The notes below the pieces were generated by a model that saw nothing but the letters and a program-made list of their open reading frames with translations, did no database searches and had not been told where the DNA came from. Source: Candidatus Microgenomates bacterium (lineage in GTDB: Bacteria > Patescibacteriota > Microgenomatia > Levybacterales > UBA12049). Taken from it: DNA of 56,283 nt. The position numbers and the translations under genes are program-made. The DNA lies in NCBI GenBank assembly GCA_025451195.1, contig JANWKV010000038.1, positions 1 through 56,283 of the forward strand, in the 5' to 3' direction. Below, piece by piece: positions 7,271-56,051 of this stretch (the first letter of the stretch is position 1; every line of letters begins with the position of its first letter).

Positions 7271-7753
7271 ATGAACTCTCTGATTATCTTTACGGCACAA
7301 TATGTTTTCCTAATTAGTATTGGGTTATTTCTTGTCTATTCTGGAGATTTATGGATAAAACAGAGAAAAATATTTTTTTCTTTTGTATTGCTTTCAATAA
7401 CCTCTTTTCTTCTCTCATTTATTATCGCCAAGATATTAGCTAATTTTATCTATGACCCTCGCCCTTTTGTTGTTGAACATGTAAAACCACTTTTTCAGCA
7501 TATTGCAGATAATGGATTTCCATCAGACCATATGCTTCTTGCCATGACTATTGCATCTGTTGTGTTTGTTTATAGTAGAAAACTAGGAATACTGCTTACA
7601 GTTATTGCGGTCTGTATAGGAACAGCAAGAGTAACGGCACATGTTCACCATGTAGAAGATATTGTTGGGAGTGCATTCATTACAATCGTTGCAACCTATA
7701 TGTCAACACTCGTTTTACCGATTCTAAAAAATAAGCTCATGACTAAAAGATAA
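7271..7753 (+). CDS. PAP2-family phosphatase (BcrC-like undecaprenyl-PP phosphatase)
   Basis: K...RPF, FPSDH and ARVTAHVHHVEDI motifs. Confidence 0.9.
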   Translation: MNSLIIFTAQYVFLISIGLFLVYSGDLWIKQRKIFFSFVLLSITSFLLSFIIAKILANFIYDPRPFVVEHVKPLFQHIADNGFPSDHMLLAMTIASVVFVYSRKLGILLTVIAVCIGTARVTAHVHHVEDIVGSAFITIVATYMSTLVLPILKNKLMTKR

Positions 7754-8839: not shown

Positions 8840-9511
8840 CTACTCTACGATTTTATATCCAAGACCTCTAACTGTTAGTATCATTCGCTTTTCTTTTGGG
8901 AATGCCTTATCTACTTTACTTCTCAACCTTTTCATAAGTACCTCTATAGTATTACTCATAGATTCATGTTGGTAGTCCCATGCATGACTTGTTATTTGTT
9001 CTCTTGTAACAATTTGATTAGGATGCCGCATGAGAAATTCTAGCAGTGCATACTCTTTTGCCGTCAATTCTATATTTTTCCCATTCCGGGTTACTTGATG
9101 AGTTTTTGGATTAATAATAAGTAATCCCACTCTTAACGTTGTTTCATTTGTTGTTGATCGCCTAATAAGAGAATGTACGCGCGCAATAAGCTCGTTAAAA
9201 GAAAAAGGTTTTGCTAAATAATCATCTGCTCCAGCATCAAGTCCTTCTACTTTTTCATCAGCGCTTCCTCTTGCCGTAAGCATAAGAATTGGAGTAAATA
9301 TTTTTTCATCTCTAAGTTTCTTGCAAATGGTAATGCCATCCATACCGGGCAGCATACGATCCAAAATAATTACATCATAATCTTCAACGCTTGCTTGCTC
9401 GTATGCCTGCTGCCCGTTATGGAGCACATCAACTAAAAACTTCTCATCCTTAAGTCCGGTTTTTATTGTATGGGCTAAACTGTACTCGTCTTCAACCAAA
9501 AGAATTCTCAT
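8840..9511 (-). CDS. OmpR/PhoB-family response regulator
   Basis: MRILLVED, LDRMLPGMDG, GADDYLAKPF and winged helix ending TVRGLGY. Confidence 0.96.
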   Translation of the reverse strand: MRILLVEDEYSLAHTIKTGLKDEKFLVDVLHNGQQAYEQASVEDYDVIILDRMLPGMDGITICKKLRDEKIFTPILMLTARGSADEKVEGLDAGADDYLAKPFSFNELIARVHSLIRRSTTNETTLRVGLLIINPKTHQVTRNGKNIELTAKEYALLEFLMRHPNQIVTREQITSHAWDYQHESMSNTIEVLMKRLRSKVDKAFPKEKRMILTVRGLGYKIVE

Positions 9512-19853: not shown

Positions 19854-20786
19854 ATGGTAAAAAACCGCCGTAAAAAAAATAAGTCATTAAACAAAAAGCA
19901 GTCTCCAAGAGTAAACTGGAATTTTTTTATTTTAGTAGGTATTGCCATAATTTTACTTCTTGGAATTTTCGGATTTGTTATTTACAAATTGCAAATTAAA
20001 CCTGTTATAGAATCTCCTAAAGGAGAGATGAAAAAAATCCCTGCGGACGTTAAAAAAGAAATGGAACAGCCAAATCAAGCCACCAGCTCTGCGGAAATCA
20101 GAGTGCCTATTCTTATGTACCATTACATTGAATACGTTCAGGATAAAAAAGACAAAACAAGGCAGGCTTTGAATATAAATCCCGATATATTCGAACAGCA
20201 ATTGCAGACACTTGCAAACGCGGGTTATACATTTTTAACTGCAAGGGAATTAGGCTATATTATTGACGGAACAAAAAGATTGCCAAAAAATCCCATTTTA
20301 CTTACCTTTGATGATGGTCATTGGGATTTTGATACTGTAGTCCTCCCGCTCTTAAAAAAATACCATGTTAAAGCAACTGCTTATATTATCCCCGGGTTTA
20401 CCGGGGGTTCGGATTTTATGTCTGCATCCCAAATACAAGATGTTATAAATAGTAAGCTTGTTGATATCGGAGCCCACACTGTTCATCATGTTTCCCTTAA
20501 AGGCAAATTGTCTCCAGTCGTAACATATGAAGTAACCCAAAGCAAATTGATGCTGGAAAATACGTACCATATTTCCGTTGTATCTTTTGCCTACCCAAAC
20601 GGATCTTTTGACCAACAGGCAATAAATGCTGTAAAAGATGCGGGGTTTACAACTGCCGTTTCTACAATTCCGGGAATTATGCAAAGCGGGCAAAACAGAT
20701 TTTTCTTAAACAGACTGAGGCCCGGCTATAGAACAGGAGAAACGCTTCTTAATTATCTGCAAAATACCACTTTTAAGGAATATTAG
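19854..20786 (+). CDS. Membrane-anchored polysaccharide deacetylase (paralog of 5619-6584)
   Basis: PILMYHYIEYVQDKKD, LTFDDGHWD, HTVHH, FAYPNG. Confidence 0.93.
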   Translation: MVKNRRKKNKSLNKKQSPRVNWNFFILVGIAIILLLGIFGFVIYKLQIKPVIESPKGEMKKIPADVKKEMEQPNQATSSAEIRVPILMYHYIEYVQDKKDKTRQALNINPDIFEQQLQTLANAGYTFLTARELGYIIDGTKRLPKNPILLTFDDGHWDFDTVVLPLLKKYHVKATAYIIPGFTGGSDFMSASQIQDVINSKLVDIGAHTVHHVSLKGKLSPVVTYEVTQSKLMLENTYHISVVSFAYPNGSFDQQAINAVKDAGFTTAVSTIPGIMQSGQNRFFLNRLRPGYRTGETLLNYLQNTTFKEY

Positions 20787-20803
20787 AATCCCCTTAGAAA
20801 ATT

Positions 20804-21637
20804 TCATTGTCTGGTTTTAAGAAATTGTAGCGCCCCGTACAAACCGTTTATTTTACCCAAAGTTCCATAAACAATTTCAGGACGCGCTTGAGCGGAAAAA
20901 ATTGTCATAAGAGAATAAAGCTCGGATGTTACGGTTTTTAATGGAATGTTAAGTCCAACAGCTCCTGCAATAATAACAATACTTGGCGACCAATGCACAA
21001 TTGTATTATTAAGCCCAATTGCCAAATTCTTTGCAATCTGTTCCCAAATTTCACTGTCTGTTATATTTTCCGCTTTTTGTTTATAAATTTTTTCAATTGC
21101 TTTTCCTCCAACATATGCTTCCAAATGGCCTTTTTTCCCGCATGCATCCTCATTTCCACCCGGAAAAATAATCTGGTGGCCCGGTTCAAAACCCCATTTA
21201 TTCTTTGCTATCTGTCCGCTAATTATAACCGCCCCGCCAACTCCTGTTCCTATAGCCAAACAGGCAACAATTTTATATCCCTTACCTGCTCCATAAACAG
21301 CTTCTCCCAAACTACCCAAAGCCGAATCGTTTTCCAGAAAAACAGGCGCTTTTATTTTTTCCGATAAATTTTCTACAATCGATTTTCCAACCCAAGAACT
21401 AATATGAGGAGACGTAATTAGCATTTGCTTTTTACTGTCCAGTGGGCCGGCAATCCCACCGGCTACTGATAAAATTTTATCGCCTCCCGAAAGTTCGACA
21501 ATGTTTTTGGAAAGAATATCCATTCCTTCTTCAAAATTTTCAGGAGTGTTAAGAATAATAGATTTTTCAACAGTGTCAAAGTTTTTAGAAACGCCAATTC
21601 TAATATGCGTACCGCCAATATCAAAAACCCCAAACAT
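20804..21637 (-). CDS. ROK family sugar kinase
   Basis: DIGGT, LENDS, GTGVGG and EPGH motifs. Confidence 0.93.
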   Translation of the reverse strand: MFGVFDIGGTHIRIGVSKNFDTVEKSIILNTPENFEEGMDILSKNIVELSGGDKILSVAGGIAGPLDSKKQMLITSPHISSWVGKSIVENLSEKIKAPVFLENDSALGSLGEAVYGAGKGYKIVACLAIGTGVGGAVIISGQIAKNKWGFEPGHQIIFPGGNEDACGKKGHLEAYVGGKAIEKIYKQKAENITDSEIWEQIAKNLAIGLNNTIVHWSPSIVIIAGAVGLNIPLKTVTSELYSLMTIFSAQARPEIVYGTLGKINGLYGALQFLKTRQ

Positions 21638-50427: not shown

Positions 50428-51843
50428 CTACACTTTAAAGTTGATATTTTTAGCGTGTTCTCCAATGTCTATCGGGTATTTGCCTGTAAAACAACTCGTA
50501 CAAAATTTTTCTTCCGGAATCCCGGTTGCTTTAATCAATCCTTCATAGGATAAATATTGCAATGTATCTGCCCCGACAAAATTTCTGATCTCTTCAACAC
50601 TCATTTGGGCTGCTATTAATTCCTGCTGTGTTGGCGTTGCAATTCCGTAAAAATCCGGATACTTGACTTCAGGAGATGCGGAAAGTAAGTGTACTTCTTT
50701 TGCTCCTGCATTTCTCACCATATGAACAAGCTTTTTACTTGTTGTACCCCTTACTATTGAATCGTCAATAACGATAACTCTTTTTCCTTTTAATATTTCT
50801 TTCATTGGAATAAGTTTAAGCTTTACGTCTTTTTCGCGCATTACATGTACGGGATTTATAAATGTTCGGTGGATATAACTGTTTTTTAAAAGTCCGTGAT
50901 CAAATTTTATCCCTGATTCTTCTGCATATCCAAGACTTGCCGGTATTGCACTGTTTGGCACAGGCACAACAATATCCGCATCAATTTTTTTCTCCCTTGC
51001 CAGTTGCCTGCCCATTTCCCGTCTAATTTCATTAATACTCTTCCCGTACAAAAAACTGTCCGGCCTGGAAAAGTAAACGAACTCAAAAATATCAAGCTTT
51101 TCAACAGTTTTTTTAGCAATCTGGTAACTATGTAAGCCGTTATCATCTATAACAATCATTTCTCCCGGTTTAACATCCCTGACAAATTCTGCGTTAATAC
51201 TATCCAGTCCGCAAGTCTCGGAAGATATCGCGTAACCTTCATCGTTATTTAATTTCCCGATTGAAAAAGGCCTTATTCCATGCGCATCGCGAAGACCAAT
51301 GACTTTATTTTTTGTAAGAATAACCAAAGAAAATGCCCCTGTAAAAAGAGGGAAGCTTTTTTCGATTGCTTCTTCAACAGACATTTCTTTTAGCATATAA
51401 AATTCAATTACTTCCTGTATTAACTCGCTATCATTATGGTGGTCTAAACCCTTACCTGTATTTTTTATGAGGAATTCCCGTAGTTTGTCTACTGTTGGTA
51501 AATTTCCATTATGTGCAACTGCAACAAGATTGTGTTCTGTATAGCAAGGTTGAAAATGGCTAAATGGACTTCCAAAAGTAGAATATCTATTATGCCCTAT
51601 TGCCATGTGACCGGGAAGTTTATTGAGGGCCTCTTCCGTATGCACGCTTGCAACAAGGCCTGGTCCTTTATTTGTCCTGATTGTTTCCCCATCTGCGGTA
51701 CTTATACCTGTTGCCTCTTGTCCTCTGTGTTGAAGTGCCCAAAGTGCGGTGCAAACAAGTCTTGCTGCGTAATGAGTTTTTGTATATACGCCAAAAACTG
51801 CACATTTTTCGCTCAGTTCCGGAGTAAAATCTTGAGAGATCAT
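50428..51843 (-). CDS. purF: Amidophosphoribosyltransferase
   Basis: Propeptide then CAVFG, LQHRGQE, GHNRYST, HNGN, FEFVYFSRPDS, DDSIVRGTT, C.SCFTG.YP. Confidence 0.97.
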   Translation of the reverse strand: MISQDFTPELSEKCAVFGVYTKTHYAARLVCTALWALQHRGQEATGISTADGETIRTNKGPGLVASVHTEEALNKLPGHMAIGHNRYSTFGSPFSHFQPCYTEHNLVAVAHNGNLPTVDKLREFLIKNTGKGLDHHNDSELIQEVIEFYMLKEMSVEEAIEKSFPLFTGAFSLVILTKNKVIGLRDAHGIRPFSIGKLNNDEGYAISSETCGLDSINAEFVRDVKPGEMIVIDDNGLHSYQIAKKTVEKLDIFEFVYFSRPDSFLYGKSINEIRREMGRQLAREKKIDADIVVPVPNSAIPASLGYAEESGIKFDHGLLKNSYIHRTFINPVHVMREKDVKLKLIPMKEILKGKRVIVIDDSIVRGTTSKKLVHMVRNAGAKEVHLLSASPEVKYPDFYGIATPTQQELIAAQMSVEEIRNFVGADTLQYLSYEGLIKATGIPEEKFCTSCFTGKYPIDIGEHAKNINFKV

Positions 51844-51934
51844 CGGTGAAACCTGTTAAGTTTCATGTTTATAATATAACATTATTGTATTTAATTCAAG
51901 CATGATGTTGTCAGAAACTTAAAGACATCATATC

Positions 51935-51962
51935 TTGACTGAACAAAAAAAGCTGATATAAT
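51935..51962 (+). promoter_or_regulatory. Sigma70 promoter of the SAM-riboswitch leader
   Basis: TTGACT-16 nt-TATAAT with TG extension, ending 6 nt before riboswitch P1. Confidence 0.7.
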
Positions 51963-51968
51963 ATATTT

Positions 51969-52087
51969 AAATCAAGAGTGATGGATAGAGGTTTGGTTCT
52001 TTGACCCATCCGGCAACCGACAAGAAACGGTGCCACACCCAAAAAGGATTTGTCCTTAAATTAAGCGAAGGAAAAATTTTTTTTGTT
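51969..52087 (+). ncRNA. SAM riboswitch, SAM-I/IV-like (no P4)
   Basis: P1 AAATC/GATTT (51969-73 / 52047-51), ATCAAGAG, P3 GGCAACCG/CGGTGCC, P5 TCCTT/AAGGA, and L3 ACAAGAAA complementary to downstream TTTTTTGT; upstream of a methionine synthase homolog. Confidence 0.85.
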
Positions 52088-52091
52088 ATTT

Positions 52092-52157
52092 ATGAAGACT
52101 TACAAAAACTACATGATGGAAATGATGCAAAACTCCTACTGGGAGGTTTTAGCGTAG
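52092..52157 (+). CDS. Putative Met-rich attenuator leader peptide (21 aa)
   Basis: MKTYKNYMMEMMQNSYWEVLA*; ATG-ATG-GAA-ATG-ATG at 52113-52127; overlaps the alternative hairpins. Confidence 0.75.
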   Translation: MKTYKNYMMEMMQNSYWEVLA

Positions 52158-52179
52158 TTTCCTAATTAAGTTAGAACGC

Positions 52180-52204
52180 AACCTCCCAAACGGGAGGTTT
52201 TTTT
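52180..52204 (+). terminator. Attenuator terminator (3:4 hairpin)
   Basis: AACCTCCC-AAAC-GGGAGGTT ending in a T run; the 5' arm is also complementary to GGGAGGTT at 52141-52148. Confidence 0.88.
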
Positions 52205-52246
52205 ATGCAGATCTCGCTGACACGAAGTGAGGCTTAGATATGCATA

Positions 52247-52274
52247 ATCCGCCGAAGCCTTGGCGAAGGTGGAT
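52247..52274. repeat. GC-rich REP-like palindrome
   Basis: ATCCGCC-GAAGCCTTGGCGAA-GGTGGAT. Confidence 0.5.
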
Positions 52275-52286
52275 ATTGGAAATAAT

Positions 52287-53366
52287 ATGAAACTCAAACA
52301 AAATAAAATACTCACAGCGATTGTTGGAAGTTATCCAAAACCAAAATATGTCTTTAAAAAATCGGGCAGGAAGCTGCTTGATAGTGTTGGTCTTGATTTT
52401 TATGCTGCGGAAAAAAATTCTGATAAAAAAACTTTTAAAAAACTTTTAGACAAAGCATCAATAAATGCAATAAAAGATCAAAATTCGGCCAACATAGATT
52501 TTATAACAGACGGAGAAGAAAGAAGAGGCCATTATGTTTTGCATATTCTCAAAGGATTAAAAGGGATTAACTTTAAAAAACTTTCAACAATAGAAATCAG
52601 AGGAGGTACTTACAAAAGAGTTGTCCCAACAATCGTCGACCAAATCAAATACGGATCTCCAATCGTTGTAAAAGAATTCTTGTTTACAAAAAAACATGCA
52701 AAAAATATTGCAAAAATAGGGCTCCCCGGCCCTTCAACAGTAATTGATTGCGTTGCGGATGAATTTTATAATGGAAATCAGGAAAAACTTGCTTTTGATT
52801 ACGCAAATGCTATTCGAAACGAAGTAAAAGCATTAATTGATGTCGGATGTAAAGTGATCCAATTCGATGACCCGGTTCTTCTTAGATATCCAAAAAAAGC
52901 TAAGGACTGGGGTTTAAAAGCACTTCAAGCGTGTTTTAAGGGACTGGAAAATAAAGCATATTTTATTGTTCATATTTGCTGCGGATACCCAAATAAACCT
53001 CTTGAGAAAAAAGGAATTTCTTACAAAGCAAACAGTAATTATTACAAAGACATTTTAAACTGGTTGTCAAAATCAACTTTGGACGCAGTATCTATTGAAG
53101 GAGCCCAAAGCAATCTTGATTTATCAAGTTTATCCTCCATAGGCAAAAAAACAGTAATGCTTGGCGTTTTAGATGTTGGAAATAATAAAGTCGAATCTGT
53201 TTCCTCTTTGGTAAATAGAGGAAAGGATGCTCTTAAATATATTAAAAAAGAACAACTGATACTAGGGCCAGACTGCGGAATGCTTGAGTTAACTAGATTT
53301 TCAGCAAAGAAAAAATTAGCTAATCTTGCAAAAGTGGCAAAAATTCTTAATGGAGGTGAGAATTAA
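52287..53366 (+). CDS. Cobalamin-independent methionine synthase II family (MetE catalytic-domain-only)
   Basis: VGSYPKP, ITDGEERR, IQFDDP; Zn ligands HICCG, E, PDCG; 359 aa without the duplicated N-terminal barrel. Start re-called to ATG at 52287. Confidence 0.9.
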   Translation: MKLKQNKILTAIVGSYPKPKYVFKKSGRKLLDSVGLDFYAAEKNSDKKTFKKLLDKASINAIKDQNSANIDFITDGEERRGHYVLHILKGLKGINFKKLSTIEIRGGTYKRVVPTIVDQIKYGSPIVVKEFLFTKKHAKNIAKIGLPGPSTVIDCVADEFYNGNQEKLAFDYANAIRNEVKALIDVGCKVIQFDDPVLLRYPKKAKDWGLKALQACFKGLENKAYFIVHICCGYPNKPLEKKGISYKANSNYYKDILNWLSKSTLDAVSIEGAQSNLDLSSLSSIGKKTVMLGVLDVGNNKVESVSSLVNRGKDALKYIKKEQLILGPDCGMLELTRFSAKKKLANLAKVAKILNGGEN

Positions 53367-54941: not shown

Positions 54942-56051
54942 TTATTTTTTTACTATCTTTTCCCAGGGGAATTCTTCGCGGCCAAAATGTCCATAAGATG
55001 CAGTAGGTAAATAAATTGCTCTTTGTAGTTTAAGTCCTTTTAAAATACCACTTACTGATGTGTCCAAAATTTTTGCTGCAAAATCATTAATTGTGTTTCC
55101 ATTTACTTTTTCTGTTCCAAAAGTTTCAACCTCTTGCATAAGTGGTTTTTTAGCTCCAATAAAGTAAGCAAGTCTTACTTCTGCCCTATCTGCCAATTTA
55201 TTCGCAACAATATTTTTTGCAATAAAACGCGCGGCATATGCACCGGATCTGTCTACTTTTGTTGGATCTTTACCGGAAAATGCTCCGCCTCCAACTTTTG
55301 CATAACCACCATATGTATCAACAACAATTTTTCTGCCAGTAACTCCACTATCTGCAGATGGTCCCCCATGATGCCAAACTCCTGTTCCATTAACAATTAA
55401 ATTTTTCTCATCAACTTTAAATCCATATTTTTTTAAAACAGGTGTAACAACTTTTTTATATAAATCATTTTTGACTTGTTCTAATTTTATCTTTTCACTG
55501 TGTGGGACAGCCAAAACAACAGTACTAACTTTGTGTGGTTTACCATCTTTATACTCCACCGTTACCTGACTTTTACCATCTGGTCTAAGGTATGGAAGAA
55601 TCTTTTTTTCGCGGATGGTATCTATTTTTTTTGTAAGTTCATGGGCAAGAGTTATTGGAAGAGGCATTAATTGAGGGGTTTCACGTACTGCAAACCCAAA
55701 CATCATACCCTGATCCCCTGCTCCCGCATCATCTACCCCAACAGAAATTTCTGGAGATTGTGCATGTATATGAACGGCAATTGGGGAAATATACGAAAAT
55801 CCTGATTTTTTATCTGTGTAACCAAGTCTTTTAATTTGCTCTCTGGCCACTTTTTCAAAATTTATTTTTGCTTTTGTTTTTACTTCTCCAGCTAGAATAA
55901 TATGACCGTGTGCTGCCATTGTTTCCACTGCAACTCTTCCTGTTGGATCTTGTTTTAAAACAGCATCAACAATTGCGTCACTAATTTGGTCGCAAATTTT
56001 GTCCGGATGACCCGCACAAACCGATTCAGAAGTAAAAGTATATGTACTCAT
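54942..56051 (-). CDS. metK: S-adenosylmethionine synthetase
   Basis: FTSESVCAGHPDKICDQISD, GAGDQG, GGGAFSGKDPTKVDRSGAY, YGHFGR. Confidence 0.98.
   Translation of the reverse strand: MSTYTFTSESVCAGHPDKICDQISDAIVDAVLKQDPTGRVAVETMAAHGHIILAGEVKTKAKINFEKVAREQIKRLGYTDKKSGFSYISPIAVHIHAQSPEISVGVDDAGAGDQGMMFGFAVRETPQLMPLPITLAHELTKKIDTIREKKILPYLRPDGKSQVTVEYKDGKPHKVSTVVLAVPHSEKIKLEQVKNDLYKKVVTPVLKKYGFKVDEKNLIVNGTGVWHHGGPSADSGVTGRKIVVDTYGGYAKVGGGAFSGKDPTKVDRSGAYAARFIAKNIVANKLADRAEVRLAYFIGAKKPLMQEVETFGTEKVNGNTINDFAAKILDTSVSGILKGLKLQRAIYLPTASYGHFGREEFPWEKIVKK

Follow-up and report, generated by a model that had tools for sequence, protein, structure and literature searches.

What is very probably a methionine-sensing leader peptide attenuator lies, behind an aptamer of the S-adenosylmethionine (SAM) clan, upstream of a short MetE-like methionine synthase family gene in a contig of Candidatus Microgenomates bacterium (GenBank assembly GCA_025451195.1, contig JANWKV010000038.1; GTDB lineage Patescibacteriota, Microgenomatia, Levybacterales, UBA12049). 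The whole stretch analysed, positions 1 to 56,283 of the forward strand, is called the window below, and numbers with G, C and L are our labels for genomes, contigs and loci. We consider it probable, overall, that the two elements act as methionine-status sensors in series on one transcript before the MetE-like operon. A more specific proposal, in which one intrinsic terminator integrates SAM, read by a P4-less SAM-I derivative of SAM-IV-like build, with Met-tRNA, and in which the locus is one of an undescribed set of attenuators in a family of Patescibacteria, is put forward tentatively. The attenuator itself consists of the following features:

52092..52157, plus strand: leader open reading frame (ORF), from ATG 52092 to TAG 52155-57, 21 codons, reading MKTYKNYMMEMMQNSYWEVLA before the stop.
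52113..52127, plus strand: regulatory codon cluster ATG ATG GAA ATG ATG, four Met in five codons, also 5' arm of the 1:2 hairpin.
52118..52162, plus strand: 1:2 hairpin (protector/pause), GGAAAUGAUGCAAAACUCC (52118-52137) with GGGAGGUUUUAGCGUAGUUUCC (52141-52162), -17.8 kcal/mol.
52141..52187, plus strand: 2:3 antiterminator, GGGAGGUU..GCGU with ACGC-AACCUCCC, -16.2 kcal/mol, with the leader stop codon (52155-57) in its 5' arm.
52180..52204, plus strand: 3:4 intrinsic terminator, AACCUCCC, AAAC, GGGAGGUU, then U7; 8 pairs, five of them G-C, -12.9 kcal/mol.

The short ORF, with its cluster of end-product codons (four AUG in five, at 52113-18 and 52122-27), stands before the MetE-like gene, and the four segments (1, 52129-37; 2, 52141-55; 3, 52176-87; 4, 52192-99 plus the T run to 52204) can form three mutually exclusive helices, 1:2, 2:3 and 3:4, the last being an intrinsic terminator. 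An earlier note on this DNA had described the ORF opening at ATG 52092, the segments and the pairings in the same way, and its likening of the whole to the trp/his attenuator geometry, with Met codons, is supported both by the homologous leaders described below and by the coordinates, the last Met codon being at 52125-27, segment 2 starting at 52141 and the stop codon at 52155-57 falling within segment 2. The 1:2 hairpin proved longer than it had been drawn there, so that segment 1 includes the final two Met codons and segment 2 the stop codon. This hairpin exceeds chance expectation (z = -3.65; p = 0.003 against shuffled 5' arms), and the region 52089-52210 folds at -33.6 kcal/mol (z = -3.56), a value equalled by 0 of 200 shuffles. 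The terminator, DNA AACCTCCC-AAAC-GGGAGGTT (52180-52199) followed by T7 to 52204, is the sole terminator-like site in 51500-52600, a scan result that is not significant by itself (1 site against 0.9 +/- 1.0 in shuffles). An alternative in-frame TTG start of the leader is found at 52083.

We infer the logic of the Met attenuator from this anatomy, and the comparison of related leaders supports it. One transcript would start at about 51969. If the leader is not translated, helix 1:2 would form, segment 3 would pair with segment 4, and RNA polymerase would terminate at 52204; when the leader is translated to its UAG, the ribosome would cover 52141-55 (segment 2), segment 3 would again pair with segment 4, and termination at 52204 would follow. 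When charged elongator Met-tRNA is scarce, the ribosome would stall at AUG AUG GAA AUG AUG with 52125-27 in the A site, reaching to about 52137 (ribosome footprint lengths in this geometry are textbook values); the stalled ribosome would melt helix 1:2 and leave 52141 onward free for 2:3 pairing, leading to read-through.

Seventeen distinct homologous Met leaders with an M-M-x-M-M core were found in 10 of the 194 family genomes, in one further genome and in metagenome contigs, and they share the hairpin/antiterminator/terminator plan with the window (examples, each ending at a stop codon: MMAMMMTSLREALS, MTAMMMSPFREVLS, ..NLMEMMQTPQREVLT, ..FMMMEMMQAPRREVLA, ..GMMEMMMTSQGEDLS, ..INMMQMMANLSGEALA, MTYKNTNMMEMMAS and MKIYSVNMMEMMTS). 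Pattern scans for the scaffold yielded Met-rich leaders in G114, G118, the one further genome (L062) and 12 metagenome contigs, to which a covariance model built from 10 Met leaders and a Met-run pattern added G014, G115, G116 and G089-G092. The Met-run pattern matched 12 of the 194 family genomes against one for its reversed control; nine of these 12, in three genera, are attenuators as judged by eye, and G118 is the tenth genome. Matches in G009, G012 and G204, together with a second match in G116, were rejected by eye as not being attenuators. A strict pattern of the module, run over 401 genomes (400 sampled from the phylum and the window's own), matched in the window's own genome only.

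The Met codons, on whose conservation the earlier note had staked its proposal, are indeed conserved, their columns being invariant or nearly so in all 10 Met leaders aligned, and the terminator pairs are kept in 100% of cells across the 10. Per-sequence shuffle tests were used in place of column covariation: the 1:2 hairpin beats shuffles in eight of the 10 Met leaders (p <= 0.03) and the extra 2:3 pairing in six (p <= 0.05). In genus g15, moreover, segment 2 and the terminator have changed together, from GGGAGG/CCUCCC to GGGG../CCCCGC. Most Met leaders stand directly behind a promoter, without an aptamer, which suggests that the module works by itself. As to the genes behind them, the window leader precedes the MetE-like gene and another an aminotransferase gene, while genes for homocysteine S-methyltransferase (4/4 tested) and for a SAM hydroxide adenosyltransferase-like protein (4/4 tested; three pass the Pfam cut-off and one is below it at 22.5 bits) follow others; the ORFs downstream of L068, L069 and L071 are without a Pfam hit or on short contigs. 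Since SAM hydrolase-like targets make methionine from SAM, a riboswitch that is off with SAM would have the wrong sign for them, and a Met sensor would be sensible.

Some further observations were made on these loci. At L071 and L074, on metagenome contigs, the leader on the same scaffold contains both Met and Cys codons (..CLMEMMCCPSMREDLS before the stop), with a downstream ORF lacking a Pfam hit. In G031 a SAM-I riboswitch (L112, C4:~64040-64220) precedes a homocysteine S-methyltransferase-like gene, read by eye, whereas in genus g15 such genes stand behind a Met leader (L063, L065, L088, L091), a swap of sensor type within the family. In L002, L005, L062, L072, L111, L112 and others 7-8 nt separate the terminator's 3' arm (GGGAGG or GAGAGG) from the ATG of the ORF that follows, so that one hairpin could both stop transcription and hide the ribosome-binding site.

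The scaffold recurs with codons other than Met. A DNA search of 61 relatives matched segments 2-4 in G002, where the leader MKISRQANYFWFYFTPQREVLT (then stop) precedes a 3-deoxy-D-arabino-heptulosonate 7-phosphate (DAHP) synthase gene, and an aromatic paralog, L064, carries TAT TTT TGG TTC TAT TTT in place of the Met codons on the same scaffold. In the window's own genome (G000), the terminator 3' arm has a copy upstream at four of the 23 perfect G+C-rich terminator hairpins, namely the one in the window and three others, labelled L078-L080:

C17:~20740-20893: aromatic leader ..KNSFWFYFTSLREEA (FWFYF) and stop, before DAHP synthase and dehydroquinate synthase genes.
C31:~7400-7490: His-His leader MEKSLLKVKAAHHNLS and stop, before genes for HisG and an aminotransferase.
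C33:~9020-9120: Leu/Val/Ile leader MKSLNLVVLIVAR (LNLVVLIV) and stop, before genes for the large and small subunits of acetolactate synthase.

Furthermore, a covariance model, R1, matches 120 of 151 family genomes at E <= 0.01, and among the matches listed (30 of about 295; loci L082-L110) are Ile, Lys (KKxKK), Thr, Ser and aromatic leaders, their peptides mostly read by eye. At the loci checked, an Ile leader precedes a LeuA-like gene, a Lys leader an ornithine/diaminopimelate decarboxylase gene, a Thr/Ile leader an amino-acid kinase gene, and a Ser leader a gene fusing haloacid dehalogenase (HAD) and 2-hydroxyacid dehydrogenase parts (SerB/SerA-like). Codon identity thus tracks the pathway on a shared scaffold, which argues that the leader ORFs are decoded and that the ORF in the window is no accident of a riboswitch expression platform; from sequence, this tracking is the strongest argument for decoding. 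The Lys and Ser leaders are, like that for Met, non-classical. Attenuator-like leaders were also noted before an arginyl-tRNA synthetase gene (L058, G191:C3; two AGG codons) and before HAD-type phosphatase genes (L055, G176:C11; L054, G166:C37, its gene read by eye).

Upstream of the leader, the aptamer and its surroundings comprise:

51964..52088, plus strand: SAM-clan aptamer, Rfam RF01725 (SAM-I/IV), 41.4 bits against a gathering score of 41.1.
51969-73 with 52047-51 (P1) and 52012-34 (P3), plus strand: aptamer helices, together with P2a/P2b carrying kink-turn (K-turn)-like bulges.
52020..52027, plus strand: P3 loop ACAAGAAA, possible 5' strand of a pseudoknot of PK-2 type.
52039..52085, plus strand: anti-P1 hairpin, the P1 3' strand and an A run (52039-51) with AAA and the U run (52073-85), enclosing 52053-72.
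52053..52072, plus strand: weak external hairpin UCCUU/AAGGA, 5 bp, -3.0 kcal/mol, aligned as P4 of SAM-I/IV.
52077..52086, plus strand: U8 run and GU, a switching strand with the P1 3' strand, the P3 loop and 52064-73 as alternative partners.

The match to RF01725 has E = 0.0023 when the whole window is searched and 1.7e-5 for 401 nt, and nothing else in the 56 kb reaches gathering level in Rfam. The class assignment of the earlier note, SAM-I/IV-like, therefore stands by the covariance model, by 0.3 bits; the split P2 (P2a/P2b) and the first pseudoknot (PK-1) are atypical of that class. SAM-I, SAM-I/IV and SAM-IV (Rfam clan CL00012) have the P1-P2-P3 core and junction nucleotides in common with the window. 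The window RNA has no internal P4 and a hairpin 3' of P1, as in the architecture of RF01725 and, according to the accessible text of PMC6890682, in SAM-IV and SAM-I/IV, where the P3 loop also forms a pseudoknot with the tail, which is possible in the window. By the same text SAM-I/IV aptamers have a simple, unsplit P2 and no PK-1, whereas the window keeps the K-turn-type P2a/P2b, with P2b = GAG/UUC, and the PK-1 complementarity (loop UGGU with GCCA in the P3-P4 junction, J3/4), besides the core and junction nucleotides. The fifth P1 pair, A-U in the window and L111 and U-A in most relatives, has changed on both sides. The window further differs from the SAM-clan aptamers in having neither a Shine-Dalgarno (SD) motif within its tail nor a terminator; AAGGA of the external hairpin is the only SD-like sequence upstream of the leader.

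The ten related family aptamers resemble SAM-I (S box) and possess an internal P4 hairpin. Directly behind each stands a terminator, and its 3' arm serves at the same time as SD for the following ORF. With a SAM-I gathering score of 44.4 bits, their scores include 54.9 (L002), 47.5 (L062), 44.0 (L003), 43.6 (L067), 41.4 (L005) and 37.2 (L004). A simple P2 and terminators of their own set the family's typical SAM-I/IV riboswitches apart from the window; these exceed the cut-off in 32 of 151 genomes and precede a metK-like ORF at 23 of the 29 loci listed (26 counting three read by eye from the DNA). By its sequence the aptamer truly belongs to the SAM clan, and it looks like a local, P4-less derivative of SAM-I rather than a typical SAM-I/IV; set against the accessible text of PMC6890682, the predicted RNA combines a SAM-IV-like architecture (no P4, PK-1, 3' hairpin, possible PK-2) with a SAM-I-like sequence. 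That it still binds SAM is favoured, if only modestly.

How the aptamer might act on the leader is suggested by the junction between them. The candidate PK-2 pairs 52020-27 with 52079-86 (8/8 complementary, with one G-U), and its 3' strand ends 5 nt before the ATG, as the earlier note had pointed out; such a match arises in 2.3% of tail shuffles and in 0.8% of random genomic 28-mers, in a post hoc test on a low-complexity A/U run. This pairing is not conserved in L006, as judged by eye, and shows no covariation. The anti-P1 helix (12 bp, -12.8 kcal/mol) is mutually exclusive with P1, dominates the free ensemble with a pairing probability above 0.9 at 52075-85, and leaves 52086-52107 open. When P1, P2 and P3 are enforced, pairing at 52086-91 rises from 0.08-0.25 to 0.53-0.99, and that of the three AUG positions goes from 0.09/0.34/0.39 to 0.50/0.34/0.61. 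In these modelled folds the change under P1 enforcement is in the direction needed by a SAM gate. Without SAM, the U-rich strand 52073-86 would pair with the P1 3' strand and the start region would be open; SAM would lock P1, so that this strand would find a new partner in the P3 loop or 52064-73 and the start region would gain structure. High SAM would then lower leader translation and favour the default, terminated fold, and read-through would need both low SAM and low charging of Met-tRNA. Lowering leader translation at high SAM is the most likely use we infer for the aptamer output, and such gating is possible, falling somewhat short of an even chance. Pairing of aptamer strands with segment 1 or 3 was considered and rejected, with only 6-bp matches found by eye that had the wrong sign or would be outcompeted. 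A U run of 7-8, often AAACAAUUUUUUUGU, recurs between SAM aptamer and terminator in L006, L130, L111 and the window (52073-86), and it might serve as a pause site or as an alternative pairing partner.

In two related loci, L062 (= L066, L076) and L067 (= L077), the order is promoter, SAM-I aptamer, strong terminator, Met leader, second terminator, gene, the aptamer scoring over the SAM-I gathering score in L062 (47.5 bits) and just under it in L067 (43.6 against 44.4). By sequence they are true two-unit tandems, where each of the sensors could halt transcription. The first terminator of L062 has GGGAGG as its 3' arm, 7 nt ahead of the first leader ATG that is in frame, so the SAM-bound fold would also hide the leader SD. 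Met-rich upstream ORFs after SAM aptamers, which the earlier note had proposed to look for in related genomes, are therefore present in these two loci, the aptamer there having its own terminator, while most Met leaders have no aptamer. The window has a single terminator where L062 and L067 have two, and its weak external hairpin (52053-72) occupies the place of their riboswitch terminator; given a 5-bp hairpin of -3.0 kcal/mol, AAAA and T8 where the first terminator should stand, the aptamer would be unable to terminate alone there. A search of G616, the L062 genome, with the window protein as query found no MetE-like protein.

Several points weigh against two sensors in series in the window. 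On the side of the leader, a good SD is absent (AAGGA precedes the ATG by 19 nt and the TTG by 10 nt), and the leader is not near a 5' end, unlike most of the others. In the window, what pairs in 2:3 past the fixed 6-bp GGGAGG/CCUCCC core does not reach significance (p = 0.16), and neither L067 (p = 0.18) nor L072 (p = 0.08) passes the 1:2 test. Covariation was sought in vain: for 1:2 and 3:4, 85.9% of cells pair and 174 of 500 shuffles reach the same, the figures for 2:3 being 74.2% and 195 of 500. Controls with slid partners are lower (43-66% paired), though biased in favour, as the structure had been drawn by hand from the window, and RNAalifold recovered just the terminator and inner stem, with no compensatory pairs. 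The absence of signal is attributed to segments that are nearly invariant and registers that differ between subfamilies. As the AUG codons themselves pair in helix 1:2 (AUGAUG with the ..CGUAG region), their conservation is confounded with that of the structure. Met starvation also limits the charging of initiator tRNA, which could blunt such a sensor. On the side of the aptamer, RF01725 clears its cut-off by just 0.3 bits, searches at genome scale (own genome at a genome-level E-value; stricter filters) missed it, the internal P4 is cleanly missing in a base-for-base alignment with the 10 family SAM-I aptamers, and the terminator scan found no terminator of its own, the window having the single one. 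As for the coupling, the P1-enforced fold is 8 kcal/mol costlier than the free fold, the helices are all A/U runs in a genome of 36% G+C, where chance complementarity comes easily, and no close relative of the exact locus was found in which conservation of the aptamer-leader junction could be read.

One alternative, which we regard as rather unlikely, is that the Met attenuator is the sole working switch and the aptamer a decaying SAM-I from an L062-like tandem ancestor, its P4 and terminator lost and its SAM-I/IV score coincidental. L062 and L067 do have a full SAM-I aptamer and a strong terminator before the homologous leader, where the window has nothing beyond the -3.0 kcal/mol hairpin and T run; P4 is cleanly absent, the SAM-I/IV score is 41.4 against a threshold of 41.1 while relatives score 44-55 bits as SAM-I, the SAM-I/IV riboswitches typical of the family, which stand upstream of metK, differ in P2 and bring their own terminators, and Met leaders elsewhere function without an aptamer. 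Decay fits less well with a conserved core whose P1, P2a/P2b, P3 and PK-1 are intact and whose fifth P1 pair has stayed complementary though changed on both sides. Moreover, the external hairpin and the 8/8 match of P3 loop to tail mirror the P4-less solution that the accessible text of PMC6890682 gives for SAM-IV and SAM-I/IV, and the 12-bp anti-P1 helix still ties P1 to the strand beside the leader start. Roles of the aptamer besides gating or vestige, e.g., pausing, take up the remaining share of the probability.

An RNA-only riboswitch with a long expression platform, in which the ORF is incidental and helix 1:2 an anti-antiterminator set by the state of the aptamer, would account for an aptamer and three helices on one transcript, and 6 bp are possible between the U run and GCAAAA in segment 1. 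It is nevertheless highly improbable: the module occurs with in-frame Met codons behind promoters, without an aptamer, in at least nine other family genomes; codon content follows the downstream pathway (aro, his, ilv, Ile, Lys, Thr, Ser) on the same scaffold; and the pairing of U run and segment 1 has the wrong sign, the U run being free when SAM is bound. Termination by the aptamer alone at the T8 run (52077-84), which the earlier note had named as the outcome that would speak against its proposal, is hardly credible in spite of the hairpin (52053-72) before the eight T, because that hairpin, of just 5 bp and -3.0 kcal/mol, is set off from the T run by four A, the terminator scan reports no site there, the only stable extension uses the P1 3' strand and would form without SAM, the wrong sign for a methionine synthase gene, and similar AAACAAUUUUUUUGU-type tails in L006 and L130 precede a real terminator.

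Two sensors in series remain our preferred reading, and the surroundings of the locus are as follows:

51935..51962, plus strand: sigma-70-type promoter, TTGACT (51935-40), 16 nt, extended -10 TG-TATAAT (51957-62); 11/12 matches, TG present.
52198..52286, plus strand: spacer from the terminator to the MetE-like gene, holding a 10-codon ORF (52205-37) and repeat sequence.
52287..53366, plus strand: short MetE-like (cobalamin-independent type) methionine synthase family gene, the regulated gene (PF01717, 1.4e-34).

The promoter that had been proposed at 51935 is thereby borne out, and since it is sigma-70-like, standard in vitro and reporter systems should work. Its -10 is spaced 8 nt from the AUCAAGAG of the aptamer, a distance equal, by eye, in the related riboswitches L003, L004, L006 and L062, and a promoter scan found no second promoter between aptamer and leader. 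For the MetE-like gene, the top NCBIfam models are named 'methionine synthase' and all score under their cut-offs; an ORF with a methyltransferase domain comes after it, and metK lies convergent at 54942-56051. Upstream of metK, on the minus strand at 56283-56160, the 3' part of another SAM-type aptamer was noticed (..CCGGCAACC..CGGUGCC..), followed by a terminator (CACUCUUCC-UUUU-GGAAGAGU and a U run) and a strong SD; Rfam does not call it because the contig end cuts it. The 10-codon ORF in the spacer (52205-37) begins 7 nt past GGGAGG, the position of the real gene start in relatives. Copies of the spacer repeat (52198-52286) stand at C17:1408-1460 (94%) and C13:8420-8450 (90%) too, relatives have many short matches to it, and by sequence it looks like a small inserted repeat element. 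The host metagenome-assembled genome has 1.17 Mb, 36% G+C and an estimated completeness of 85%; the genomes of relatives and the phylum sample range from 0.3 to 2.2 Mb.

Classical leader attenuators are those of trp, his, phe, thr, leu and ilv in Proteobacteria, trp and ilvB in Actinobacteria, and hisS/hisZ in Bacilli, and the known regulators of Met genes are S-box/SAM riboswitches, T-boxes or protein repressors. The window shares with the classical cases the cognate-codon ORF, the 1:2/2:3/3:4 helices, the intrinsic terminator, the stop codon whose recognition masks segment 2 and the default termination; it differs in having AUG as the sensed codons, in Met codons that lie within segment 1 and pair with the region of the stop codon, and in its host, a lineage of Patescibacteria (Candidate Phyla Radiation, CPR). 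In Bacillus clausii, tandem SAM-I and adenosylcobalamin riboswitches before metE form a two-input gate. Two sensors of related metabolites likewise stand in series before a methionine synthase gene in the window, and expression would need both to be low, but the second sensor is a translated leader peptide instead of an aptamer, and there is one terminator. The Salmonella mgt leaders have Mg2+, ATP and proline as ligands and no SAM aptamer, and their ORF is inside the sensor, whereas in the window it comes after it. In the accessible text of PMC3641672, the Salmonella mgtA and mgtCBR leaders combine a riboswitch or other sensor with short leader ORFs. The SAM-II riboswitch of Sinorhizobium meliloti metA, as presented in the accessible part of PMC9373788, controls an SD and has a terminator between AUG1 and the real start, so that translation and termination are interleaved; it has no run of Met codons and no stalling logic, and aptamer class and organism differ from the window.

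According to the accessible text of PMC2965389, leader peptides were known only in Proteobacteria and Actinobacteria before a Firmicutes case, and that of PMC1262725 lists methionine and lysine as regulated by riboswitches and attenuators for His, Thr and Phe. Among the leader families of Rfam 15 the best score was Phe_leader at 21.5 bits against 55, and none reached gathering level in the window or 18 related loci. No published Met-codon leader peptide attenuator was found in the literature searched, with most subscription journals and supplements outside its scope; nor, with most subscription journals likewise outside, was transcription attenuation in Patescibacteria or a CPR riboswitch combined with a leader peptide, and no description of Lys or Ser leader peptide attenuators was found in the literature searched. 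As far as this search extends, Met specificity and the aptamer-leader hybrid are undescribed.

The Met attenuator would fill a missing case in textbook leader peptide attenuation, from which methionine has been absent until now, and a conserved attenuator with Met codons suggests that ribosome stalling can sense elongator Met-tRNA although initiation also needs methionine. The tandem would be a natural hybrid of a metabolite-binding RNA and a translation-based sensor, by which both ends of the step from methionine to SAM are read. CPR/Patescibacteria are usually thought to be poor in biosynthesis and in known regulation, and this family appears to be heavily reliant on ribosome-mediated attenuation.

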